Positions 931 to 16,992 of a stretch of 17,787 bases of DNA are shown in pieces. Below the pieces are notes generated by a model that was not told the origin of the DNA, searched no databases, and worked only from the letters and a program-made list of their open reading frames with translations. Each line of letters opens with the position of its first letter. The first letter of the stretch is position 1. The translations under genes were made by a program, and so were the position numbers. This DNA comes from Nitrospinales bacterium (GTDB lineage: Bacteria > Nitrospinota > Nitrospinia > Nitrospinales > JAJDAT01): assembly GCA_046757665.1 (NCBI GenBank), contig JBHHYO010000057.1, forward strand, positions 1 through 17,787, read 5' to 3'.

Positions 931-2775
931 TCAGGAGGAGAGCGGATAGAGTTTGAAGTAGGTTTTCATGATTTCGCGGGCGATGGGGGCGGCGGTATGG
1001 CCGCCGTGCCCGCCGTGTTCGACAATGATGGATACGACGATCTCCGGCCGTTCGTACGGGGCGAAGGCGATAAACCAGGCATGGTCACGAAAGCGGTAAG
1101 GGATTTCTTCCTTGTCGAGTTCCTCGTCGCCCTTTTTCATGCCAACCACTTGCGCGGTGCCGGTTTTGCCGGCGACCAGGACGTTTTTGAGGCGCGCCGA
1201 GCGCGCCGTGCCATGCGGCTCGTTGACGACTCCCCGCAAGGCGTCGCGGATCAGCGTCAGGGTTTCCGGCTGGATGTCGATTCGCCGTTCCACCCGCGGA
1301 TGAAATTCCTCCACGACATTTCCATCGGGGTCCTCGATGCGCTTGACCAGGTAGGGCCGGAGCAGGATGCCGCCGTTGGCCACGGCGGCCATCAGGTTCG
1401 CCTGCTGTAACGGGGTGACCAGGTTATAGCCCTGGCCAATGGAAGCGGAGATGGTTTCCCCCGGCAACCAGGATTCGCCCCGCGCCGACTTTTTCCACTC
1501 GGAGGTCGGGATGAGACCCGGTTTTTCTCCGGTCAGGTTTATTTTCGTGTAGCGACCCAACCCGAAGGCCCCGGCATAGCGGGCCAGCCGGTCGATGCCG
1601 AGGTGGTGTCCGACGGTGTAAAAAAACACGTCGCAGGACTGCTTCAAGGCATCGTAAACGGTGATCGCCCCGTGTCCGCCTTTTTTCCAGCAACGATAGG
1701 TTCTGCGTCCGAGACGAAAACTTCCCGGGCATTTGATGACGGTTTCCGGAGTGATGATTTTTTCCTGCAAACCGGCGTAGGCGGTAATGATTTTATAGGT
1801 CGAGCCGGGAGGGTATTGTCCGTCGATCGCCCTGTTTTGCAGGGGGTGCATGGCATCGGCTACGAGGTCCCGCCATTCCGCTCGGGATATACCGGTGGCG
1901 AACCGGTTGGGGTCGAAGGACGGTTTGCTTGTGATGGCGAGGATTTCCCCGGTATGCGCCTTCATGACGACGACGGAGCCCGAGACGGGGTTTTCCGGTG
2001 TTCCGGCCATTAACCGCTCCACCGTTTGCTGAACGCGCTGGTCCAGGGTCAGGATCAAGTGGTTGCCGCTTTTCGGCGGAAGCCGGTTCACGACCCGGAG
2101 GTCTCTTCCGGAAACGTCCACCTCGACTTCCTGGTAGCCCTTTTGTCCGCGCAGGAAATTTTCATAGACGCTTTCGAGCCCATCCTTGCCGATCAGGTCG
2201 CCTTGCCGGTAATTGGCGTACCGGGGGTTTTCCAGCTTGGCCCTGGAGATTTCTCCCAGGAAGCCCAGGGTTTGGGAGGCCATGTCGTCATACACATAAT
2301 TTCTCAAGGGCACCACTTTGAGGTTGACGCCCGGCAGGCTCAATTTATTTTCCTCCAGGATGGCCACTTCCTGGCGGCTGATGTCCGCTTTCACGAGGAC
2401 GTCCTGGAACGGGCGGGCCTTGCGGAGGTTTTGTTTTGCCTTGTCGCCGTCGAAGTCGATTTTCCGCGCCAGCGCGGTCAGGGTTTTCGACAGGTCCTTG
2501 ACATCTTCCGGCCGGATGTAGAGGTTGAAGGACGGGCGGATGTTGACCAGGGTTTCACCGTTCCGGTCCTTCATCATTCCCCGGTAGCCGGGCAAGGAAA
2601 CCAAACGGATGCGGTTGCTTTCCGACATGCCGCGGAAATGCTGGCTTTTGATGATTTGCAGGTACCAAATCCGCATCCACAAACCCAGAAAGCCTACAAT
2701 CACCAGGATCGCAAAAATCTTGATCCGCTTGCGGACATCCTCGGAAACATCCGCCTTGTACTGGTAAAGACTCAT
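931..2775 (-). CDS. mrdA: Penicillin-binding protein 2 (elongation transpeptidase)
   Basis: N-terminal TM, dimerisation domain and catalytic motifs SxxK (PGSTYK), SxD (SCDVFFY) and KTG (AGKTGTAQ). Follows mreD with a 4-bp ATGA overlap. Confidence 0.96.
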   Translation of the reverse strand: MSLYQYKADVSEDVRKRIKIFAILVIVGFLGLWMRIWYLQIIKSQHFRGMSESNRIRLVSLPGYRGMMKDRNGETLVNIRPSFNLYIRPEDVKDLSKTLTALARKIDFDGDKAKQNLRKARPFQDVLVKADISRQEVAILEENKLSLPGVNLKVVPLRNYVYDDMASQTLGFLGEISRAKLENPRYANYRQGDLIGKDGLESVYENFLRGQKGYQEVEVDVSGRDLRVVNRLPPKSGNHLILTLDQRVQQTVERLMAGTPENPVSGSVVVMKAHTGEILAITSKPSFDPNRFATGISRAEWRDLVADAMHPLQNRAIDGQYPPGSTYKIITAYAGLQEKIITPETVIKCPGSFRLGRRTYRCWKKGGHGAITVYDALKQSCDVFFYTVGHHLGIDRLARYAGAFGLGRYTKINLTGEKPGLIPTSEWKKSARGESWLPGETISASIGQGYNLVTPLQQANLMAAVANGGILLRPYLVKRIEDPDGNVVEEFHPRVERRIDIQPETLTLIRDALRGVVNEPHGTARSARLKNVLVAGKTGTAQVVGMKKGDEELDKEEIPYRFRDHAWFIAFAPYERPEIVVSIIVEHGGHGGHTAAPIAREIMKTYFKLYPLSS

Positions 2776-3278
2776 AACGAGAACGTGGGGTTCTTCCGTT
2801 GGAAACGTTTTTTGATCCGGTTGAGAACGAGAAACAGCAGGGGGCCGGCAACGGCGTTATAAACGGCAAAAACCGGGAGCGAGGTGAGGAAAAATCCCTC
2901 GGGCATCCCCCCCTTTAACAAGATAGCGGAAACGGCATAGTAAACCAAGCCGTCAAAAAAAGCAGCCAGGGCCAGCAACAGGCAAACCGTGGGGATATTT
3001 TCGAGCAACAACTGGTCTTTCAGGTTGGAGATGAACAGGCCGATCAGGCTTTTGGAAAGCATGTTGACGCCGAGCAGTCCCCCGGAAAGGCAGTCTTGCA
3101 GGAACCCCGTGGCTCCCGCCAGGGCCACTCCGGTATTCCCCTGAAAATAAATCCCGCAATACAGGGCGAAGATCAGCGCCAGGTCGGGCGTCACTCCGGC
3201 GACGGAAAACAGGCCGAGCCAGGTGGTCTGGACGGCAAACAGGAGAATTAAAAACAGGGAATAGCCTAAAAAAGCCAT
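2772..3278 (-). CDS. mreD: Rod shape-determining membrane protein MreD
   Basis: 168-aa hydrophobic protein with PDLALI and G..QD..S.G.LG motifs, lying between mreC and mrdA. Confidence 0.92.
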   Translation of the reverse strand: MAFLGYSLFLILLFAVQTTWLGLFSVAGVTPDLALIFALYCGIYFQGNTGVALAGATGFLQDCLSGGLLGVNMLSKSLIGLFISNLKDQLLLENIPTVCLLLALAAFFDGLVYYAVSAILLKGGMPEGFFLTSLPVFAVYNAVAGPLLFLVLNRIKKRFQRKNPTFSL

Positions 3279-3282
3279 GGCG

Positions 3283-4110
3283 TTATTTTTCCATTCCGCG
3301 CAAAAGCACGAGCACTTCCTCCAGCCGGGCGAGGTCGGCGTTTGGGGTGGCGGTAATTTTCTGGAACAGGCCTTGTTTCTTTTTCGTCACCCGGGCCACG
3401 GTACCCACGACCAGCCCCTTGGGGAAAATGGCGCCCATGCCGGAGGAAATAATTTTGTCGCCGACATGGACGACAGCGTCGATGGGCACAAACCGCACGT
3501 CGCACTCTTCCCCGCCGGTTCCCACCATCACGCCGGAAACGCGGGACCCCTGGAACAGGACATCGACGGCGCTTCGACTATCGGTGATCAGGAGGACCTT
3601 GGAGGCATTGGCGCCGGCCTGAATCACGCGCCCGACCACTCCCAGGTGCGTGACCACGGCGTAATTTTCGCGGATGCCCCGGTTGACCCCCTTGTCGATA
3701 AAAACGACTTTCGACCATTGCGTCGCGTCCCTGCCGATGACGGACGCCGCCTCGACCCGCCCCTCCCGGCCGCCTTGACGCTCCAGGAGGTTACGGATTC
3801 TTTCATGATGGAGCAATTGTTCCCGCAAACGGTTTTTCTCCTGCTTCAAGAGAGCGACTTGCCGTTTCAGGGCTTCATTTTCCCTGGAGACCTCGACGAG
3901 GAAGAGATAATGGTTCACGACCTCGGAAACCGAGTCGACGGCGCTTGTGAAGAGGGACTGAAAAGGCGAAACGATCCAGACAAAAGGGGACTCGAGGAAG
4001 TCCGCGGTCTTGTCGGATTTGATATTGATGGTGATCAGGGCGAAGGCGATCAGGAAAATCGAGGAGAGGACAACGACGAGGTTTTTTCCTTTGGCTTCCT
4101 TGTTCAACAC
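3283..4110 (-). CDS. mreC: Rod shape-determining protein MreC
   Basis: N-terminal TM, coiled coil (ENEALKRQV), ASVIGRD, IDKG, GVVGRV and SSGMGAIFPKGLVVGTV motifs. GTG start. Confidence 0.95.
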   Translation of the reverse strand: MLNKEAKGKNLVVVLSSIFLIAFALITINIKSDKTADFLESPFVWIVSPFQSLFTSAVDSVSEVVNHYLFLVEVSRENEALKRQVALLKQEKNRLREQLLHHERIRNLLERQGGREGRVEAASVIGRDATQWSKVVFIDKGVNRGIRENYAVVTHLGVVGRVIQAGANASKVLLITDSRSAVDVLFQGSRVSGVMVGTGGEECDVRFVPIDAVVHVGDKIISSGMGAIFPKGLVVGTVARVTKKKQGLFQKITATPNADLARLEEVLVLLRGMEK

Positions 4111-4112
4111 AA

Positions 4113-5144
<1,032 letters not shown>

Positions 5145-7356: not shown

Positions 7357-8709
7357 TCAAATCGCCCGGTTGATCCGCAAAACCTTATCCACCAGGGACT
7401 CCACATCGTCGGCGATCACCCGGATCATCTCTTCCTTCCCCATGCCGCCGAGGTCATAGATAATGTCCGGAACTTTTCCGTAATCGCGGATGGCCTTTGC
7501 CGTTCCCCATTCCAGGCTGGACCCTTCTCTTGTCCTGACATGCCGGGGTTCGTTCGAGCGGCTGAAGGAAGCGATTTTGAATTTCAGGCGCTTGCAGATT
7601 TTCAAAATGGCGCCGCTATACTTGAGGTTCATTACGGCCCGCTTGGAAGGGTCGAACCGCATCACCGTCAAGACAATGTGCGCGACATGTTTGGAAGCGC
7701 CAAATTCCGGCGGCGCGGGGACGAGGATATCCCGCCCTTTTTTTACGATGCGCGCCGGGAAAGCGATGACATCGCCCTCAACGCTTGCCGCCCTCAGGCC
7801 CACGCCGATGTTGGACTGGACTTCCGGGATCAATGCGCCGATTTTATTTTCCCGCAAAACTTCTACTGCCGCGGCAACACGCTGAAACAAGTCGAGCCGC
7901 TCCCGGCTCTCGTAAAGCGACGACAAGGGTTCCAGGTTAGTTGCGCCGTTTCCCGCTTGAACGGCCTGCCCTGCTTGCAGGATCGCCTGGCTGATGAATT
8001 TCTTGGCTTGCCGGACCGCCGACGGCAAGTCCTGCCCCGAGGCCAGCCCCGCAACGATAGCCGCGGAAAACACACAGCCGGTTCCATGCAGGTTGCCGCG
8101 AGCCAACCGCCGGGACTCCAAAATCACCGCGTGGCGGCCATCGTAGAACAGGTCGTCGGCGTTGCCTCTGGCATGACCGCCCTTGATCAGGACATTCTTT
8201 ACTCCGGTTTTCAGGATCGCCCGTGCCGCCTTGATCCGATCCGCCGGAGTGACGATCCGCAGGCCGGACAGGGCCTCCGCTTCCGGCAGGTTGGGCGTAA
8301 CCAGCAAGGCGAGCGGCAGTAATTTCGATTTCAACGCTTCCACGCCTTTGCCGGACAACAAGGTTTTCCGGCTTGAGGAGCGGATCACGGGATCGACCAC
8401 GATTTTTCTTATGCGGTAACGCCGCAATCGATCCGCCACGCATTCTACCAATGTCTCGTTGCCCAGCATCCCGGTTTTCACCGCCGAGGGCCTTGAATCG
8501 GAGAAAACCGAATTCAACTGCGCGGCGACCACTTCAACGGGAAGGTCGTAAGTTTCCTGAACGCCTCGAGAATTCTGCGACGTGACGGAGGTGATGACGG
8601 AAACGCCGGGGACCTCATGCGCCGCGAAAGTTTTGAGGTCGGCCTGGATTCCCGCGCCGCCGGACGGATCGGAGCCCGCTATGGTCAAAGCCGGTTTTGT
8701 CATTTTCAT
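7357..8709 (-). CDS. thiD: Bifunctional HMP/HMP-P kinase ThiD fused to ThiN-type thiamine-phosphate synthase (ThiDN)
   Basis: ThiD motifs: [49 protein letters not shown]. The C-terminal ~185 aa has ThiN motifs: [51 protein letters not shown]. Start could be 8703. Confidence 0.9.
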
Positions 8710-8722
8710 TTTTCGTTTTTTC

Positions 8723-10543
8723 TTATCCCACGGTCACGGATTTGGCCAGGGCGCGCGGTTTGTCGATGTTGCGCTTGAGAGACGTCGCCGTAAAATACGC
8801 GAACAACTGGGCGATCACCATTTGCAGGAAAGGCGCTATGATCGGGGAAACGGAGGGCAGGATCAATTCTTCGCTGAACAGATTCTTGTTTTTTCCCCGG
8901 GCGCCGAAATGAATCCCCAGAACAAAACCGGAGCGCGCGCGGATTTCCTCCAGACTGCGCAGTGTCGATTCGTAAAGGTCTTTTTCGCATTCCGGCGGGA
9001 AAAAAATAATGGAATAGATGTCCTCGTCGATCATAGCCAGGGTGCCGTGTTTCAGGAACCCGCCCGGCATCCCTTCCGCATGGACATAGGCCACTTCCTT
9101 CATTTTCAACGCCGACTCCAGGGCGATGGGATAGTAAACGCCGCGCCCCAAGTACAGCCAGTGCTTGACGTTTCGGTATTTGTGGGCGATTCGGTGAATG
9201 AACCCGGAGCGTTCGTTCAAAATGCCGTGAATGATTTCCGGCAGTTCGTGAAGTTCGGCGATGGATTTGTCAAATTCTCTGCGCGTGATTTGCTTTTTTT
9301 TCACGGCCAGGCGCAGGGCGATCATCAGCAGGATCACCATTTGCGAAAAAGCCGCCTTGGTGCTGATAACGCATATTTCCGGTCCCGAGCCTTGCAGAAT
9401 GGTTTTATCGACAAGCCGCGCCATGGACGACCCCATCATATTGACGATGGCCGCGGTTTTTGCCCCCCGCGTCCTGGCGTATTTCAACGCCGCGAGGGTA
9501 TCGTAGGTTTCGCCGGATTGGGAAATCGCCAGGACCGCGCTTTTCCTGTTCACCTTGGCGAGGGAAGCGAATTCGTCGGAACTGATGGACGGCAGGAACT
9601 CTCCCGCCAGGCTGGAAAACGCATACTTGCCGAATTTTGCCACATAATAAGTTGTTCCCACCCCCACCAGATACGCGGTGTCGCTGTGCAGAATCATTTC
9701 CGCCACGTCATCCAGGACCTCCGGGTCCGCCTCCAGCGCGTTGATGACCGTTTGCGGTTGCTCGTAAATTTCCTTGAGCATGTAATGGGGATAGCCGCTC
9801 TTCTTGGAGGCTTCGCCGTCCCATTCGATTTTCATAATCGTTTTGGGTATTTCTTCCCCGGTCACCCGGTTTTTTACGATATAGCTGTCCTTGGAAAGAA
9901 TGGCATATTCCCCATCCTCGATAATGACGGCGTTCTTCGTAAAATCGATGAATGAGTTGAGGTCGGAGCCGACGAACTTCTGTTCGTCGCCGATTCCCAG
10001 CATCAGCGGCGACTCGCGCTTGGCGCAGAAAATCTGGCCCGGTTGGTGAACGCAAAGAAATGCCAGGGCAAAGGTACCGTCCAACGAATCCAGGGTTTTC
10101 CTCAAGGCCGATTCCACATCATGGTCCTCGCGGAAAAATTTCTCCAGAAGATGCGGGATAACTTCGGTGTCGGTCTCGGAGACGAATTGATGCCCTTCCT
10201 CCCGGAGCGTTTCCCTCAAGGCCCGGTAATTGGAGATGATGCCGTTGTGAACCACCGCGAAACTTTTGTCGCAAGAGGAAAACGGATGGGTGTTGTCCCG
10301 CGTGACCGTGCCGTGAGTCGCCCATCGGGTATGGGCAATGCCGATCTTGCTTTTGTGCCGCAGGACGTTGTCTTTTCGATAAAATGTTTCAACGTCGCCG
10401 ACGTTCTTTTTAAGAACGAGGTGTCCCCGGTTCATGAGGGCGACGCCGCAGGAGTCGTACCCCCGATACTCCAGGTTGCGAATACACTGGAACAACGAGG
10501 CCGAAATATCTTTCAATCCGACAATGCCACTGATGCCGCACAT
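8723..10543 (-). CDS. glmS: Glutamine--fructose-6-phosphate transaminase (isomerizing)
   Basis: N-terminal MCGI (catalytic Cys), [43 protein letters not shown] and C-terminal [10 protein letters not shown]. Confidence 0.94.
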
Positions 10544-10563
10544 GAGAAGGGCTCGCTCGACGG

Positions 10564-11769
10564 TTAACGGGTAGTAACGGAATAACGGGCGGGTAATGTT
10601 TTGTTCGGGGCAATCACCGTTCCGGGCCGGAGGGTATTGCCCGCCCCAATGATTACGTTATCCCCTATGAACGCTCCGAGTTTCTCCCGCCCGGTGTTGA
10701 TGATGTTTTTGCCGACCTTGACGCGGACCGGTTTCCAGTCAACGGCGCGGTTCACGGTCATGGACCCCGCGCCGAAATCCACGTTTTCTCCAAGAACGCT
10801 GTCGCCGATAAAGGATAACCGGCCGACGCTGGTATTGCCGAACACCACGCAGTTTTTCAGCTCGACTCCGTAGCCCACCGAACAATTGTCGCCCAGGGAC
10901 GTGTAACTGCGAACCAGGGAGTTGTTGCCGATGTAGCAGTTTTTACCGATGGAACAAGGCCCCTCCAAAACCGCTCCCGCCTTGATGACCGCGCCCTCGG
11001 CGATTTTGACGGTGCCGAGAATCGTGACGTTGCCTTCCATAACGGCGGATTTGGCGATCGAGGACTCCTCCCAGGAATCCATGATGATTTTGTTGGCGGT
11101 CAGGATTTCCCAGGGATGCACGATATCCAGCCACTCGTCTTCCCACATGGAAGCGCGGAGTCCCTCCTCTTCCAGCATACTGCCAACGGCTTTTTCCATG
11201 GAGCACTGGTTTTCCTGCAAATGCCGGAAAAAGCTCGAGGGCAGAATGTACGCTCCAGCCAGAACATAATTGCCCAGCTCGCCGCCTTTGGGTTTTTCGA
11301 TGATTCGGGTGATTTTCATTTGCGCGTTCAAGAATACGTTGCCGAACATCTTGTTCGACGGCGGCAGGCAAATCGACGCGACCGGACTCTTGAACGAATG
11401 GAAGGACTGCTCGATCTTGGCGAATATGTTGGCGGAGGTGACCGTATCGCCATAGACCAGCAGGAAATATTCCCCTTGAAGAATTTTGTTCTTCATCTGG
11501 AACACGGCACGGCCGATTTCGCCGATTTTTTTCTGTTCCACATATTGGATGTTCAACCCATTGTGGACATGCTCGCCGATGTGCTCGATCACTTTTTCCT
11601 TCTGGTGCCCGACGACGACAAAGATATCGTTGATTCCCGATTTTTTCAACAGGTTGATGGTGTTGTCGAAAAGATAGTTCCCGGCGACGCTGACCATGGG
11701 AATGGGGCGTGTCTTGGAGAACGGGGATAAATTGCTCCCCTTCCCGGCGGCAAGGATGACGGCTTTCAT
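10564..11769 (-). CDS. Archaeal-type GlmU-like sugar-phosphate nucleotidyltransferase + left-handed beta-helix protein with substituted catalytic motifs
   Basis: 401 aa. MKAVILAAG, YGD, EKP, W.DI..PW.IL.AN, hexapeptide repeats, GVELKNC, LSFIGDSVLGENVDFGAG and KLGAFIGDNV match the ~400-aa archaeal GlmU architecture. Confidence 0.85.
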   Translation of the reverse strand: MKAVILAAGKGSNLSPFSKTRPIPMVSVAGNYLFDNTINLLKKSGINDIFVVVGHQKEKVIEHIGEHVHNGLNIQYVEQKKIGEIGRAVFQMKNKILQGEYFLLVYGDTVTSANIFAKIEQSFHSFKSPVASICLPPSNKMFGNVFLNAQMKITRIIEKPKGGELGNYVLAGAYILPSSFFRHLQENQCSMEKAVGSMLEEEGLRASMWEDEWLDIVHPWEILTANKIIMDSWEESSIAKSAVMEGNVTILGTVKIAEGAVIKAGAVLEGPCSIGKNCYIGNNSLVRSYTSLGDNCSVGYGVELKNCVVFGNTSVGRLSFIGDSVLGENVDFGAGSMTVNRAVDWKPVRVKVGKNIINTGREKLGAFIGDNVIIGAGNTLRPGTVIAPNKTLPARYSVTTR

Positions 11770-11803
11770 GACAGGCTCTTGATGTTGGCGTGACGAGGTT
11801 TTA

Positions 11804-12550
11804 TCAGAAGGGACGACCGGTCAAAATCCGCTCCGCTCTTTTTAAATCTTCCTCGCAATTGATGCCGAGGACCTCATCGGCATCCCCGGTTTGAACGAAT
11901 TGAACGGCCGATCGATGGCGCGCAAGGTTCCGGATGGTGTCGGTCAAATAATATTCCGCTTGTGAATTATTATTGTCGAGCTGATTTATGGCTTCAAAAA
12001 CCAGGTCCTTGTCAAAACAATAAACGCCGGCATTGTATTCGTCAATAGTTTTTTGCCGGGCATCGGCGTCACGGTTTTCGACGATACCGGCAATCCGTCC
12101 CTTTTCGTCGCGGAGAATCCGCCCGAAATCCCTGGGCTGTTCCGTCTTGAGAATCAACAAGGTGCAATCGGCATCGGTTTTCCGATGATGCGCCATCAGG
12201 TTTTCCAGCGTGGACGCCTTGATAAAAGGCATGTCGCCGCACAAGACCAGGAGGTCGCCCCGAAAATCGCGCAATGCCGATTCCGCCTGCAAGACGGCGT
12301 GCCCCGTTCCCTTCTGCTCTTTTTGCTCCACAAACTCGATGCGGGGGTCTGGAAACGCGGCGGCCACGCGCTCCGACTGAAAACCCACCACGACAATCAC
12401 CCGGTCCGGGGCCAGCGCAAACACCGTGTCCAGAACGTAAGCTAACAGCGGTTTCGAGGAAAGTGGATGGAGGACCTTGGCAAGAGGAGAGTTCATTCTG
12501 ACTCCCCTGCCGGCCGCCAGAATGACGGCCGCTAGGGCTTTTTGCCGCAT
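11804..12550 (-). CDS. glmU: Stand-alone GlmU N-terminal domain (probable GlcNAc-1-P uridylyltransferase), lacking the acetyltransferase beta-helix
   Basis: AVILAAGRGVRMNS..AKVLH, Q.EQKGTGHAV, LCGDMP, FGRILRD, IVE.RDA, EYNAGVY, NNNSQAEYYLTD and GIN..EDL motifs. Ends after the linker helix at 248 aa. Confidence 0.85.
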   Translation of the reverse strand: MRQKALAAVILAAGRGVRMNSPLAKVLHPLSSKPLLAYVLDTVFALAPDRVIVVVGFQSERVAAAFPDPRIEFVEQKEQKGTGHAVLQAESALRDFRGDLLVLCGDMPFIKASTLENLMAHHRKTDADCTLLILKTEQPRDFGRILRDEKGRIAGIVENRDADARQKTIDEYNAGVYCFDKDLVFEAINQLDNNNSQAEYYLTDTIRNLARHRSAVQFVQTGDADEVLGINCEEDLKRAERILTGRPF

Positions 12551-12798
12551 TTTATTTTGTAATCCTTGATTTTTTTGCTCAAGGTGTTGCGGTTAATGCC
12601 CAGGATATTGGCCGCCCGGGTGCGGTTGCCCCCGGTCTCGGTGAGCACGATCTCCACCAGGGGTTTTTCAACCCCGCCGACGATGAGTTCGAAAAGCCGG
12701 CCGTTCTGTTTTCCATCCATCTTGGCGACGTATTGCTTGACGCTTATATCCAGCCACTTTTCCAGGAAGGAACGAACATCTTGTTTTACTTTTTTCAT
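12532..12798 (-). CDS. fis: Fis-like helix-turn-helix DNA-binding protein
   Basis: 88 aa with VEKPLVEIVL..TGGNRTRAANILGINRNTLSKKIK (HTH_8/Fis signature). Overlaps the next gene by 19 bp. Confidence 0.75.
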   Translation of the reverse strand: MKKVKQDVRSFLEKWLDISVKQYVAKMDGKQNGRLFELIVGGVEKPLVEIVLTETGGNRTRAANILGINRNTLSKKIKDYKIKCGKKP

Positions 12799-12885
12799 GC
12801 GGCGGCACGGGGGTTGAGGCTCAGGCGCAACGATTTCCGGAAAATCGAGGAAACCCCTTTCTCTGCGTCGAAATCGGATGAAGCG

Positions 12886-12914
12886 ATTCTAACAAACTCG
12901 TTTTTTTCGGTCAA
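12886..12914 (-). promoter_or_regulatory. Sigma70-type promoter for the fis-glmU-glmS-thiDN operon
   Basis: Minus strand TTGACC (12914-12909), 17 bp, TAGAAT (12891-12886), with an extended -10 TGn. Confidence 0.65.
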
Positions 12915-12955
12915 CAATAAACCGGGCCTTATCCCGTTACACCCCGATTTACAAG

Positions 12956-12985
12956 TTGATTCATCCGCCGAGCCTGGTCTATGAT
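12956..12985 (+). promoter_or_regulatory. Sigma70-type promoter for the mtaB operon
   Basis: TTGATT (12956-12961), 18 bp, TATGAT (12980-12985). RBS GGGAG at 13015-13019. Confidence 0.55.
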
Positions 12986-13027
12986 GACTTTATCGCGCAA
13001 ATCTGCGTTTCAATGGGAGCAGATAAA

Positions 13028-14368
13028 ATGAAGGTCGCCTTCACCACACTGGGTTGCCGTTCCAATCAACACGATACCGCGGAAATGCAAACCCTGCTGG
13101 AACATGACGGTTTCCGTATCGTTGACGCCCGGGAAAAGGCCGACGTTTACGTCGTCAACTCCTGCACCGTGACGGGGAAAAGCGATTACAGCTCCCGTCT
13201 GGCGGTCAAAAAATCCCTTGGCATCAATGAAAATGCGCGGGTGGTCTTTACCGGTTGCTACGCGCAAAACAGTCCGGCGGAGGTCGCGGAGATACCCGGC
13301 CTCGATCTGGTTCTGGGCAACGCCGACAAGCTCGACATTGCGTCCGCCATCAAGCGGTTGCTCACGGCGGCACGCACCGGCGAGCCCCCGGCGGCGGAGA
13401 AACCCGGCGCGCCGCTCGTCCGCATGTCGGACCTTTCCCGTAGCCGGGTCTTCACAACCGTTCCCGTAACTCATTTCCCGGGGAAAACGAAGGCGTTCAT
13501 CAAAGTGCAAACCGGTTGCGACGAACGCTGTTCCTTCTGCACCGTCGTCAAGGCGCGCGGCCGATCTCTCAGCGACGCCCGGGCAAACGTTCTCCGCAAC
13601 GTGCAAACCGCCGCCGACGCCGGCTACAAGGAGATCACCCTGACGGGCATCAACCTGGGAACCTACGGCATGGACTTCGACGTTCCCCAAACCTTCTCCG
13701 CGCTGGTCGCGGATGTTATGAAACTGCCGGGCGATTTCCGCGTGCGTTTGAGTTCCATCAACCCCATGGAAATCGACGACGCCCTCATCCGCCTGATCGC
13801 GGAGCATGAAAACCTGTGTCCGCACCTGCACGTTCCCCTGCAAAGCGGCGACGACTCGGTGCTGGCGCGGATGCGGCGCAATTACCGTTCACAGCAGTAC
13901 CTCGACGCCGTCCACCGCGCCCTGGACGCCATCCCCAACCTGGGCCTGGGCGCGGACGTCATCGTCGGCTTTCCCGGCGAAACCGACGCCATGTTCGAAA
14001 ACACGTTGAAGCTCGTCGAGAGCCTGCCGTTTTCCTACCTGCACGTTTTTTCCTATTCCGGCAGGAAGGGAACGGAAGCGTATTCGTTGAAAGACGCCGT
14101 GCCCAAGGCGGTCAAGAAAATGCGCCACAAACTGCTGACCGATCTGGGGAACCGGAAGGCCTTGCAATTCCGCCGGCGGTTTTTGGGGCGGACGGTCTCC
14201 GTGCTCATCGAAACCCGCGCCGACCCCGTTTCCGGGCTGTTCCGGGGCCGTTCGGAACATTATATTCCCGTCAGCGTTTCCGGCGGCGAAGCGTTCGTCA
14301 ACCGGATCGTCCCCGTCACCGTCGAGCAAGTCTCGGAACGGCAAGTTTCCGGATGCGTCCCATCATAA
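13028..14368 (+). CDS. mtaB: tRNA t6A37 methylthiotransferase (radical SAM, MtaB/MiaB family)
   Basis: TLGCRSNQ, VNSCTVT and TGCYAQ (UPF0004 domain), KVQTGCDERCSFC (CxxxCxxC), HLHVPLQSG, YLHVFSYS.R.GT and a C-terminal TRAM-like region. Start moved to ATG 13028, which has an RBS. Confidence 0.88.
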   Translation: MKVAFTTLGCRSNQHDTAEMQTLLEHDGFRIVDAREKADVYVVNSCTVTGKSDYSSRLAVKKSLGINENARVVFTGCYAQNSPAEVAEIPGLDLVLGNADKLDIASAIKRLLTAARTGEPPAAEKPGAPLVRMSDLSRSRVFTTVPVTHFPGKTKAFIKVQTGCDERCSFCTVVKARGRSLSDARANVLRNVQTAADAGYKEITLTGINLGTYGMDFDVPQTFSALVADVMKLPGDFRVRLSSINPMEIDDALIRLIAEHENLCPHLHVPLQSGDDSVLARMRRNYRSQQYLDAVHRALDAIPNLGLGADVIVGFPGETDAMFENTLKLVESLPFSYLHVFSYSGRKGTEAYSLKDAVPKAVKKMRHKLLTDLGNRKALQFRRRFLGRTVSVLIETRADPVSGLFRGRSEHYIPVSVSGGEAFVNRIVPVTVEQVSERQVSGCVPS

Positions 14369-15156
14369 CCCTCACCACCGATTTCGGCCTCGACGATCCT
14401 TTCGTCGGCATCATGAAGGGGGTCATCCTGCGCATCGCGCCGACGGCGGAGCTGGTCGATATCACCCACCGGATCGAGCCGCAAAACGTCCGGCAAGCCG
14501 CCTACACCCTGCAATCGGCCTTTTCCTGGTTTCCGGAAAACACGGTGCACCTGGTGGTGGTCGATCCCGGAGTCGGCGGCGGGCGGCGGGCGCTGGCGGC
14601 GAAAACCGGCGGGCACCGCTTCGTCGCCCCCGACAACGGGGCGCTCACGCCGATTCTCGACGCGGACGCCGGACGGGTTTACGAATTGACGCAGTCGAAA
14701 TATTTTTTGCATCCGGTGTCCGCGACCTTCCATGGCCGGGACGTGTTCGCGCCCGCCGCCGCGTGGCTCGCCAGGGGAACGCCCTTGTCCAAAATGGGCG
14801 CCCGCGTCCGCGATCCCAAAACGCTCGCCCTGCCCCAGCCGTCGTTCCAGCGCAATACATTAAAAGGAGAAATTGTGCATATCGACCGGTTCGGCAATTT
14901 GATGTCCAACATTTCCGCGGAACTCCTGCACCGGTACTTTGCGGTGAAAACGGATGCCCTGAAAATCCGCGTCGGCGGCAAGTCCGCGGGAGCGATGGTG
15001 GACAGTTATTCGCGGTGTCAAAAAGGAGAGCCGGGGTGTATCCTGAACAGCTGGGGATGCCTGGAGGTTTTTTGCCGCGAGGCCGCGGCCGCCGAACGTT
15101 TCAAAAGCCGGGTCGGCGCCGCCATCACCGTCACCGCGAACCGGACCGGGAAATGA
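14353..15156 (+). CDS. DUF62 SAM hydroxide adenosyltransferase (SAM hydrolase; chlorinase/fluorinase superfamily)
   Basis: Starts MRPIITLTTDFG at ATG 14353, overlapping the mtaB end. VDITH, VVDPGVGGGRR, TFHGRDVFAP and HIDRFGNL motifs are present. The Asp-Arg-His triad of the hydrolase subtype is present. Confidence 0.9.
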   Translation: MRPIITLTTDFGLDDPFVGIMKGVILRIAPTAELVDITHRIEPQNVRQAAYTLQSAFSWFPENTVHLVVVDPGVGGGRRALAAKTGGHRFVAPDNGALTPILDADAGRVYELTQSKYFLHPVSATFHGRDVFAPAAAWLARGTPLSKMGARVRDPKTLALPQPSFQRNTLKGEIVHIDRFGNLMSNISAELLHRYFAVKTDALKIRVGGKSAGAMVDSYSRCQKGEPGCILNSWGCLEVFCREAAAAERFKSRVGAAITVTANRTGK

Positions 15157-15849: not shown

Positions 15850-16992
15850 TTACACGCTCAAGAAAGCGTCCAAAATAACAGGATCGAGCTCTTTGCCTTT
15901 CCGGGCTTTCATTTCCTTGAAGACTTCTTCACTTGAAAATTCTTTCTTGCCGTCACGTTCACCGGTCAAGACATTGAAAGTGTCCACCACCGCGACGATC
16001 CGCGCCAGCAAGTCGATCTCTTCACCCTTCAGGCCCCCGGGGTAACCGGAGCCGTCATAGTGTTCATGATGCTGTTCGGCAATGACGGCCACCCTGGAAA
16101 AAAAGTCATTGTTGCCGTTCCTGAGAATCTCGCCGCCTTTTACGGTATGCGTTTTCATGATTTCCCATTCATCGGGGGCCAATTCCCCCGGTTTGTTCAG
16201 GACGCTGTCCGCAATGCCGACATTCCCCACGTCGTGCAAAACGGCGCCGGCGTCGAGGGCTTCCATATCATCTTCCGACAACCCCAGCTTCCGACCCAAC
16301 ACGCGGCAATGCTTGCGCATTTTCGTGATGCGATCGGCGCAATTCCCATTCCTGCCTTCCGCCGCCTTGGCCAGCATCATGACCACTCCCCGTTCCATGC
16401 GGCTCAAATCCTCGCGGGGAATGAACATGCCTTGAGCCGGAAAGAAAGGGTTCCTGACAAGAGCAAGGTTCGATGAAGCGATCAAGCCATAACGCCTGCC
16501 GTTCACCAGCTTGCCGATGACTTGACGATAGGCATCCACCTCTCCATAAGCTTTAAATTTTTTCAGAATTTCCTCGGTTTCCTTTTCATCAAAACCGAAC
16601 TCCGAGCGGAGATCCTTTATGTTCATCCCGATAAGGTCGTGATAAGCCAATTGCCGCCCCGGCGAGTCTCCGATAATTTTGTTTATTTCATCCACCAGCT
16701 TGTTGCTGACAAAAACCACCCTGCCCTTGCGGTCCACCATGTAAAAAGCATTTTTAATGTTGCGCAAGGCCAGGTAGATGGACGTGAAAAACCGTTGCGA
16801 GTACAACGCGACGATAAAAGGCACCATATAGTTCGCGGAAATTTTCCAAAAACTTTCCCAGGAAAACGAAGCCGATTCAAGCAACATGGCGATGTATTCG
16901 CCGTTATTGACCAGATTAAGAACCGTGCCGACGACGAGGGCTGTCAGGAAGGCTTTTTTTGAAGCTTCATTTTTTATATTCCGCAAGCTCAT
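15850..16992 (-). CDS. Membrane-anchored HD-GYP domain protein with N-terminal NrtS-like membrane hairpin and PAS-like region
   Basis: aa ~12-65 ALVVGTVLNLVN.G...WKI.ANY.VPF.V..YS (NrtS-like). aa ~80-190 FYMVDRKGRVVFVS...LIGMNI (PAS-like). C-terminal LHDVG, KPG.L...EW.IMK.H and HHEHYDGSGYP.GL.GEEI...ARIVAV.D. Confidence 0.85.
   Translation of the reverse strand: MSLRNIKNEASKKAFLTALVVGTVLNLVNNGEYIAMLLESASFSWESFWKISANYMVPFIVALYSQRFFTSIYLALRNIKNAFYMVDRKGRVVFVSNKLVDEINKIIGDSPGRQLAYHDLIGMNIKDLRSEFGFDEKETEEILKKFKAYGEVDAYRQVIGKLVNGRRYGLIASSNLALVRNPFFPAQGMFIPREDLSRMERGVVMMLAKAAEGRNGNCADRITKMRKHCRVLGRKLGLSEDDMEALDAGAVLHDVGNVGIADSVLNKPGELAPDEWEIMKTHTVKGGEILRNGNNDFFSRVAVIAEQHHEHYDGSGYPGGLKGEEIDLLARIVAVVDTFNVLTGERDGKKEFSSEEVFKEMKARKGKELDPVILDAFLSV

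Follow-up and report, generated by a model that had tools for sequence, protein, structure and literature searches.

A GlmU homolog lacking the catalytic residues of both domains as a candidate partner of GlmS in Nitrospinota and Binatia-type bacteria

Introduction

UDP-N-acetylglucosamine (UDP-GlcNAc) feeds both peptidoglycan and lipopolysaccharide, and GlmS catalyzes the committed, tightly controlled step of the pathway; to our knowledge, the well-studied lineages each control this enzyme by a device of their own. Catalytically silent nucleotidyltransferases, with or without a left-handed beta-helix (LbH) domain, act as regulatory or scaffold subunits in other settings, as in eIF2B gamma/epsilon, GalF and GlgD. 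GMPPA, whose fold is that of the protein considered here, is reported to be a pseudo-enzyme that binds GDP-mannose and restrains GMPPB (PMC11228364), and GlmR (YvcK) of Bacillus subtilis is reported to bind UDP-GlcNAc and to interact with GlmS (PMC7525490, PMC6171935). Here, we analyzed a 17,787-nt window, contig JBHHYO010000057.1 of a Nitrospinales bacterium (GCA_046757665.1; assembly 97.6% complete), in which a homolog of archaeal-type GlmU, hereafter pseudo-GlmU, lacks the catalytic residues of both of its domains and is encoded directly upstream of glmS; positions are window coordinates unless another contig or locus is named. We put at roughly 55% the probability that pseudo-GlmU descends from an archaeal-type GlmU, has lost catalysis and serves as a dedicated partner of one GlmS subtype, here called type B, probably sensing a ligand and tuning GlmS.

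Pseudo-GlmU shares with GMPPA the superfamily fold (nucleotidyltransferase plus LbH), and its PDB matches include the GMPPA-GMPPB entries 7d72-7d74. It also shares the loss of catalytic residues in a fold kept under selection and would follow a similar logic, that of a product-binding pseudo-enzyme controlling a pathway enzyme. However, GMPPA regulates its own catalytic paralog, whereas the predicted partner of pseudo-GlmU is the unrelated GlmS, at the entry of the pathway. The role proposed here, that of a GlmS partner acting by way of the pathway end product, would also be common to GlmR as reported, but GlmR is a CofD-family protein with no homology to pseudo-GlmU, which carries no PF01933 domain. 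As far as we know, GlmR is not an obligate neighbor of glmS. The likeness to eIF2B gamma/epsilon, GalF and GlgD is by analogy only, because their partners are paralogs or translation factors and not GlmS; in the source genome, the NCBIfam model 'GalU regulator GalF' was among the matches of the rmlA_long protein. The limited full-text collection that we searched yielded nothing relevant on a GlmU-like partner of GlmS, and the ESM Atlas returned only automatically named GlmU-like clusters. Judged against these analogs, the new element would be a dead copy of the last enzyme of a pathway tied to the first.

Results

Pseudo-GlmU has lost the catalytic residues of both GlmU domains

On the minus strand of the window, four tightly packed genes follow one another, encoding a half-length GlmU (half-GlmU), pseudo-GlmU, GlmS and a ThiD-ThiN fusion, with gaps of 34, 20 and 13 nt; an open reading frame (ORF) check found the half-GlmU and pseudo-GlmU ORFs both intact. 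The features on which the analysis turns are as follows.

10564..11769, minus strand: pseudo-GlmU, archaeal-type GlmU homolog without the catalytic residues of both domains, 401 aa (TIGR03992, ST0452 alignment)
11701..11745, minus strand: degenerate nucleotide-binding loop of pseudo-GlmU, GKGSNLSPFSKTRPI, with Asn13 for Arg and Ile23 for Lys (translation)
10765..10824, minus strand: beta-helix site of pseudo-GlmU, GRLSFIGDSVLGENVDFGAG, with Arg317, Phe320 and Asp331 replacing His, Tyr and Asn (translation)
11140..11430, minus strand: part of the pseudo-nucleotidyltransferase domain, residues 114-210, with the bulk of the predicted GlmS contacts (complex model)
8723..10543, minus strand: GlmS of type B, 606 aa, starting 20 nt past the pseudo-GlmU stop (TIGR01135, 620.6 bits)
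9752..9829, minus strand: inter-domain linker region of GlmS, residues 239-264, a predicted pseudo-GlmU contact (complex model, translation, conservation)
9191..9229, minus strand: GlmS segment, residues 439-451, with the tightest predicted contacts (complex model, conservation, translation)
11804..12550, minus strand: half-GlmU, a bacterial-type GlcNAc-1-P (N-acetylglucosamine-1-phosphate) uridylyltransferase domain alone, 248 aa (TIGR01173)
12476..12514, minus strand: intact nucleotide-binding signature of half-GlmU, AGRGVRMNSPLAK (translation and alignment to E. coli GlmU)

Pseudo-GlmU is a two-domain protein (Pfam NTP_transferase at residues 2-228, plus Hexapep) that scores 312.5 bits with TIGR03992, the model of archaeal GlmU, over its cut-off of 292.1, and AlphaFold2 predicts a confident two-domain fold (predicted local distance difference test score, pLDDT, 91.9; predicted template-modeling score 0.91). 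In its alignment with ST0452 (PDB 2ggo; E 9.4e-53, residues 1-387), Arg13 is replaced by Asn13, Lys23 by Ile23, His308 by Arg317, Tyr311 by Phe320 and Asn322 by Asp331, and the equivalents of D99, E146/K147, D208, N331 and K337 are kept; His363, Tyr366 and Asn377 of E. coli GlmU (MG1655 sequence) align with the same Arg317, Phe320 and Asp331. We take the aligned residues of ST0452 and E. coli GlmU to have the catalytic roles generally attributed to them. An earlier sequence-only reading of this DNA had described a 401-aa protein with both domains, encoded by an intact ORF, and had named these same five substitutions; the alignments agree with it. Neither the nucleotidyltransferase signature G-x-G-x-R...K (Arg13/Lys23 in ST0452; R18/K25 in E. 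coli) nor the acetyltransferase His with its neighboring Tyr (H308/Y311 and H363/Y366, respectively) is present and, on these two defining catalytic features of the sequence, pseudo-GlmU should not be filed as a GlmU. In databases, its relatives are named GlmU, glucose-1-phosphate thymidylyltransferase or bifunctional transferase. Pseudo-GlmU has the two-domain architecture and length of ST0452 and the other archaeal bifunctional TIGR03992 enzymes, but differs from ST0452 in the replacement of Arg13, Lys23, His308, Tyr311 and Asn322, in the hydrophobic residues found in place of T80 and of the N169-type sugar contact, in its membership of a separate clade devoid of the catalytic His, and in its coexistence with enzymes predicted to cover both GlmU reactions.

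The substitutions are ancient and the protein is under strong purifying selection

An exhaustive search of representative sequences gave 439 proteins at E <=1e-30, and 138 near-full-length sequences (137 from the best 150 of the 439, plus the pseudo-GlmU of the window) were scored at the catalytic-His position. It is occupied by His in 95, by Arg in 29 (19 Arg-Phe and 10 Arg-Tyr) and by other residues in 14. In a tree built after removing the two trait regions, all 29 Arg sequences and eight of the others formed one 37-sequence group without any His sequence (Shimodaira-Hasegawa-like approximate likelihood ratio test, SH-aLRT, 86), within which the pseudo-GlmU of the window falls in a 14-sequence clade (SH-aLRT 100). 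Across 121 close homologs (the search matches plus the protein of the window), the commonest forms at position 13 are N, H, K and Q, never R, and those at position 23 are I, N, T and L, never K; the strict pattern GRLSF[IV]GDS occurs in 85 of them, the other 36 being off-pattern.

As clade representatives, we used the 19 Arg-Phe sequences, whose Arg and Phe counts are circular since these residues define the group. The triphosphate loop is degenerate, the equivalent of R18 being Arg in only 1/19; the equivalent of T82 is I or V in all 19 and that of N169 is L in 15. Other equivalents in the nucleotidyltransferase pocket are mostly kept (Q76 in 17/19, D105 in 18/19, G140 in 17/19 and E154 in 13/19), and those in the beta-helix are kept (R333 in 18/19, E349 in 19/19, K351 in 17/19, N386 in 19/19 and K392 in 19/19). 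In pseudo-GlmU numbering, 17-19 of the 19 retain the phosphate-binding R287, K305 and K363 as well as E303 and N340, and GRLSF[IV]GDS is kept across the clade; position 331, the Asn377 equivalent, is variable (E, D, Y, N, K and others).

Within the Nitrospinota, 79 of 81 genomes encode pseudo-GlmU; the remaining two are 90% and 83% complete. Median identity to the protein of the window is 69.6% for pseudo-GlmU (67 loci) and 70.7% for GlmS (62 loci), compared with 54.6% for half-GlmU (63 loci) and 58.9% for ThiD-ThiN (56 loci), and pseudo-GlmU exceeds half-GlmU in identity in 57/57 loci. The substitutions are therefore ancient, clade-wide and selected rather than a private decay, and pseudo-GlmU is under strong purifying selection, as conserved as GlmS.

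Pseudo-GlmU is paired with glmS, and with one GlmS subtype

When species-representative genomes were scanned with a pattern, 399 loci encoding pseudo-GlmU relatives emerged, and genomic context was taken from the best 80 of these. In 78 of the 80, the next gene downstream, on the same strand, is glmS, and the other two end at a contig edge; among the 80 loci are some from records bearing the titles Binatia, Tectomicrobia, Margulisiibacteriota and 'delta proteobacterium'. The gaps between pseudo-GlmU and glmS are 8-126 nt, most of them under 30 nt. A half-GlmU neighbor is present in 66/68 Nitrospinales-type loci and in 0/12 of the others, and in five deeper-branching Nitrospinota genomes half-GlmU and pseudo-GlmU lie on separate contigs. 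Of the synteny considered in the sequence-only reading, the link to glmS is thus conserved, whereas that to half-glmU is confined to part of the Nitrospinota. The GlmS of the window is the sole one over the family cut-off in the source genome, and the same holds for the pseudo-GlmU-adjacent glmS in three further carriers outside the Nitrospinota, a Binatia-type genome (G083) among them. Of five carrier genomes from outside the Nitrospinota, four have a complete, canonical GlmU at another locus (505-520 bits).

Carriers could be compared with relatives lacking the gene in the GTDB order to which G083 belongs (31 genomes). Pseudo-GlmU is found in 12 of the 31, and in 12/12 of these carriers it adjoins a GlmS with 52-56% identity to that of the window (type B); all 19 non-carriers have only a GlmS with 35-39% identity (type A). 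Type B is thus always beside pseudo-GlmU in this order and type A never is, and one carrier holds both types. A full GlmU is present in 29/31 genomes, including 11 of the 12 carriers, and dropping one unpublished non-carrier changes nothing (12/30 and 29/30). Type-A glmS stands beside a canonical glmU in 8/18 loci. The two types differ at 19 positions, each at least 90% conserved within its type; several of these surround the isomerase active-site loop (type-A form AEAYAAGELKHGP), and type-B GlmS ends in Gly rather than Glu. Both types keep the catalytic Cys1, the SGET motif, the E488/H504-type residues and the C-terminal Lys, which we presume to have their usual roles.

One Tectomicrobia locus (L135) has additional features: 3 kb upstream of pseudo-GlmU and its GlmS there is a second, longer GlmS-like ORF (1085-3193; 702 aa, 37% identity), and in another ORF (10884-13203) the first ~250 residues are homologous to a stand-alone acetyltransferase of the kind described below and the remainder to a UvrD-type helicase, possibly a fusion or an artefact of ORF calling.

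A complex of pseudo-GlmU and GlmS is predicted

We modeled GlmS (alignment A3, 22 rows) together with pseudo-GlmU residues 1-394 (alignment A2, 36 rows), a heterocomplex prediction of the kind that the sequence-only reading had suggested. The complex scored 0.69 (runs of 0.69, 0.77 and 0.65), and the best of three controls scored 0.00. The mark applied to this score is reached by 116/157 solved complexes and by 2/215 mismatched pairs, counts that are rough for the custom alignments used here. Agreement between the runs extends to at least 87% of contacts, with a partner pLDDT of at least 87, and, as a prediction, the model supports binding of pseudo-GlmU to GlmS. We know of no solved complex of GlmS with a GlmU-like protein, and so it seems unlikely that the score derives from a memorized structure.

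The predicted interface comprises, on the pseudo-GlmU side, residues 43-45, 114-127, 135-151, 164-168 and 206-210 (the contacting residues within 114-210 being 114, 117, 120-127, 135, 137, 139, 145-151, 164-168 and 206-210) and, on the GlmS side, the last part of the glutaminase domain (195-207), the inter-domain linker with the first helix of the isomerase domain (239-264) and a third segment (439-451). N443, E444, S446 and G447 of that third segment are invariant in type-B GlmS and different in type A; overall, type-B-conserved positions that differ from type A make up 12/32 of the GlmS interface against 90/574 elsewhere (Fisher p = 0.003). On the other side, alignment A2 shows conservation of at least 92% at N167, Y168, W209 and E210 of pseudo-GlmU.

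Enzymes predicted to cover the ordinary hexosamine pathway

Half-GlmU matches positions 2-237 of the 452 of TIGR01173, the bacterial GlmU model, with 260.6 bits, under the full-length cut-off of 366.85, and its chain ends at model position 237, without the C-terminal LbH acetyltransferase domain. With E. coli GlmU it shares the residue at 11 of 13 aligned uridylyltransferase positions (15 examined), R18 and K25 included. The 248-aa protein had been described earlier as keeping the uridylyltransferase signature and stopping before the acetyltransferase, in agreement with both the partial model match and AGRGVRMNSPLAK. A half-length TIGR01173 match occurs in 78/81 Nitrospinota genomes, and a full-length GlmU over the cut-off in 0/81 searched; the source genome likewise gave no glmU match over the cut-off. 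Half-GlmU is thus a genuine N-terminal half of the TIGR01173 family, and the order of glmU and glmS resembles that of E. coli; unlike the bifunctional bacterial GlmU, the Nitrospinota acetyltransferase is a separate, archaeal-type protein, encoded in the source genome on another contig.

This stand-alone acetyltransferase, found with the archaeal GlmU model, is a 269-aa ORF on a contig here called C3 (62073-62879, minus strand). It matches the C-terminal part of TIGR03992 only (152.5 bits) and has the E. coli residues at the equivalents of R333, E349, K351, H363, Y366, N377, A380, N386 and K392. True orthologs (E <=1.5e-70) occur in 77/81 Nitrospinota genomes; of the remaining four, three gave a cross-match to pseudo-GlmU only and one gave no match. 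We infer from its sequence that the C3 protein is a canonical-site glucosamine-1-phosphate (GlcN-1-P) acetyltransferase supplying the step absent from half-GlmU. In 12/12 Nitrospinota loci examined it follows, on the same strand, a phosphohexomutase-like gene of about 715 aa, which in the source genome lies directly upstream (C3, about 62880-65020, minus strand).

With GlmS, a mutase, the C3 acetyltransferase and half-GlmU, we infer that the ordinary chemistry of UDP-GlcNAc synthesis can be covered without pseudo-GlmU. The sequence-only reading had held that no canonical acetyltransferase is present, which stands for the operon but not for the genome, and had concluded that a non-canonical route to UDP-GlcNAc is implied; this conclusion is not supported, because with the C3 protein, a predicted LbH acetyltransferase that retains His, Tyr and Asn, the route can be an ordinary one spread over separate proteins. 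Taking the carriers together, gene content indicates that both GlmU reactions are covered without pseudo-GlmU, by half-GlmU and the acetyltransferase in Nitrospinota and by full GlmU in Binatia-type genomes.

The mutase genes merit a separate remark. No canonical glmM over the cut-off was found in the source genome. The best family matches of the 715-aa protein are partial ones of its N-terminal part to the glmM and Arch_GlmM models (~100 bits), and this phosphohexomutase-superfamily protein, with ~250 extra residues, is a candidate unusual phosphoglucosamine mutase; a PgmG/Arch_GlmM-like gene of 456 aa lies on another contig (C94). In three of three Binatia-type loci (~9020-11230), pseudo-GlmU and GlmS are followed by a PGM/PMM-family gene of 724-736 aa. 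A single long mutase family linking both contexts was considered and rejected: the 715-aa protein and a 736-aa Binatia protein are 23% identical over ~390 residues, and by sequence the Binatia long mutase belongs to a different subfamily in a similar position.

Discussion

A pseudo-enzyme tied to GlmS best fits the data because four observations point the same way: the conserved synteny with glmS, the co-occurrence with type-B GlmS, the coexistence with a complete GlmU and the predicted complex with GlmS. The sequence-only reading had proposed a regulatory or scaffold pseudo-enzyme serving GlmS or half-GlmU. The synteny, the type-B association and the complex model support the tie to GlmS, whereas a partnership with half-GlmU has only adjacency to recommend it. 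In the mechanism that we favor, the ordinary work of making UDP-GlcNAc in the source genome would be done by GlmS, the mutase, the C3 acetyltransferase and half-GlmU, while the pseudo-nucleotidyltransferase domain of pseudo-GlmU, as the model places it, would bind GlmS across the hinge that joins its glutaminase domain to its isomerase domain. In the light of structural work on GlmS and GFAT, a protein at this hinge could govern the domain closure needed for catalysis. The partly preserved pockets suggest, by the residues kept in them, that pseudo-GlmU still binds a metabolite of the pathway; candidates are UDP-GlcNAc, GlcN-1-P or glucosamine-6-phosphate (GlcN-6-P) and acetyl-CoA, and such binding may tune GlmS activity by feedback or feed-forward control.

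There appears to be room for another GlmS control device in this organism because neither of two described ones was found: an Rfam scan of the window gave no family, and hence no glmS ribozyme, and a search of the source genome for the GlmR/YvcK family (PF01933) gave no match, a control search having matched 11 of 14 reference genomes.

Several observations weigh against a GlmS-tuning pseudo-enzyme. Binding to GlmS rests on one structure prediction, and the pseudo-GlmU side of the interface shows no enrichment in conservation (0.65 against 0.61 in alignment A2; 0.44 against 0.50 in a wider set). Adjacency of glmU and glmS is ordinary, as in E. coli and in the 8/18 type-A loci, and could simply have been inherited. 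The gene is dispensable at the order level, being absent from 19 of the 31 genomes in the order of G083, and its distribution is patchy, since in a sample of the GTDB phylum of G083 the only match among 41 genomes was G083 itself. Binding of UDP-GlcNAc in the old mode is doubtful because the changes of T82 to I/V and of N169 to L would remove polar sugar contacts, if these residues have the roles usually assigned to them. The conserved Arg317, Phe320, Ser319 and Asp323, together with the phosphate-binding triad, fit an active site of altered chemistry equally well, and some LbH N-acetyltransferases, such as QdtC and WlbB, work without a catalytic base.

These last two points lead to the main rival, which the sequence-only reading had also raised and which we regard as unlikely: pseudo-GlmU may be an active acyltransferase coupled to GlmS, of changed chemistry or substrate (for example GlcN-6-P leaving GlmS, or another acyl donor), in which Arg317 and a nearby acidic residue replace the His-based mechanism and only the nucleotidyltransferase domain is dead. 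Besides the existence of base-independent enzymes of this fold, the conservation of GRLSF[IV]GDS and of R287/K305/K363, E303 and N340 in 17-19 of 19 representatives is in its favor, as is the slightly higher conservation of the beta-helix compared with the N-terminal domain (0.64 against 0.60), and tight coupling to GlmS would also suit substrate channeling. However, the general base His has become Arg throughout the clade and the Asn377 equivalent is not conserved; the carriers already possess a complete GlmU or a canonical stand-alone acetyltransferase, leaving no pathway step vacant; and it is hard to see what purpose N-acetylglucosamine-6-phosphate, as the product, would serve alongside a GlmU requiring GlcN-1-P.

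Rather improbable, in our estimate, is a purely structural role, in which pseudo-GlmU would be an obligate subunit needed for the stability or assembly of type-B GlmS, without ligand sensing or regulation. The strict co-occurrence with type B (12/12 against 0/19), the short intergenic gaps and the predicted complex are all compatible with such a subunit, and eIF2B gamma/epsilon offers a precedent for this fold as a scaffold, eIF2B epsilon being among the PDB sequence matches. What speaks for sensing instead is the conservation of pocket residues that have no structural role, namely Q79, D108, G143, E158, R287, E303, K305, N340 and K363.

The default database annotation would make pseudo-GlmU the acetyltransferase half of a split GlmU that works with the adjacent half-GlmU. 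The half-GlmU neighbor in nearly all Nitrospinales-type loci (66/68), the names given to its relatives (GlmU or bifunctional transferase) and the passing of the TIGR03992 cut-off agree with this annotation, but we consider it very improbable: the catalytic His and Tyr are absent, a stand-alone acetyltransferase with a canonical site is present in 77/81 Nitrospinota genomes, the half-GlmU neighbor is missing from all 12 loci outside the Nitrospinales and the two genes are on separate contigs in the five deeper Nitrospinota genomes, and pseudo-GlmU coexists with full GlmU. That pseudo-GlmU is a decaying, functionless relic, as the loss of catalytic residues in both domains might suggest, has a negligible chance of being right and is refuted by its conservation, which equals that of GlmS, with an intact ORF in 79/81 Nitrospinota genomes, a clade that spans several phyla and a confidently predicted fold.

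Returning to the dedicated GlmS partner, we also entertain a stronger version, which is tentative and to which we give less than an even chance, in which type-B GlmS, a whole subtype, works only as a hetero-complex with the dead GlmU, whose fossil sites would sense end products or co-substrates (UDP-GlcNAc, acetyl-CoA and GlcN-phosphates). If this is true, the last hexosamine enzyme has been recycled as an allosteric feedback subunit of the first, and GlmS control would gain a third, protein-based form in addition to the glmS ribozyme and to the GlmY/GlmZ-RapZ and GlmR systems. More generally, if a dead GlmU does serve as a subunit of GlmS, it would represent a new control device for this enzyme and a clear case of the last enzyme of a pathway being recruited to govern the first. 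For the Nitrospinota, which are marine nitrite oxidizers, and for Binatia-type genomes, metabolic reconstructions would wrongly credit pseudo-GlmU with the GlmU steps, because it is named as GlmU, thymidylyltransferase or bifunctional transferase, and they would overlook the true stand-alone acetyltransferase. Strictly paired as they are, pseudo-GlmU and its one GlmS subtype also offer a simple two-protein system for the bench.

Other features of the window

The fourth gene of the minus-strand group lies 13 nt past glmS:

7357..8709, minus strand: ThiD-ThiN fusion (Pfam Phos_pyr_kin and ThiN)

It combines a hydroxymethylpyrimidine kinase with the archaeal-type thiamine-phosphate synthase ThiN. 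This gene follows glmS in most Nitrospinales-type loci (L061-L128) and in none of loci L129-L140, and it probably stands outside the pseudo-GlmU/GlmS system. The best sigma-70-like site of the region, at 12886-12914 on the minus strand (TTGACC, a 17-nt spacer and TAGAAT, with an upstream TG; 10/12 by consensus match alone), lies ~336 nt upstream of the half-GlmU start and is a putative promoter that could drive the operon.

A rod-shape cluster occupies 931-5132 on the minus strand, with MreB at 4113-5132, MreD at 2772-3278 and PBP2 at 931-2775; the unassigned same-strand ORF at 3283-4110 within it is presumably mreC, and the plus-strand ORF at 3277-4116, which has no Pfam match, is probably spurious. 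Beyond the half-GlmU gene, 12956-15156 on the plus strand encodes a MiaB-like radical SAM (S-adenosylmethionine) methylthiotransferase (UPF0004, Radical_SAM and a weak TRAM match) followed by a SAM hydroxide adenosyltransferase. Since the Pfam match of the latter covers its listed ORF only from residue 184 onward, the true start is probably near 14365. On the strand opposite to the MiaB-like gene, an HD_5 (HD-GYP-like) protein is encoded at 15850-16992 (minus strand).

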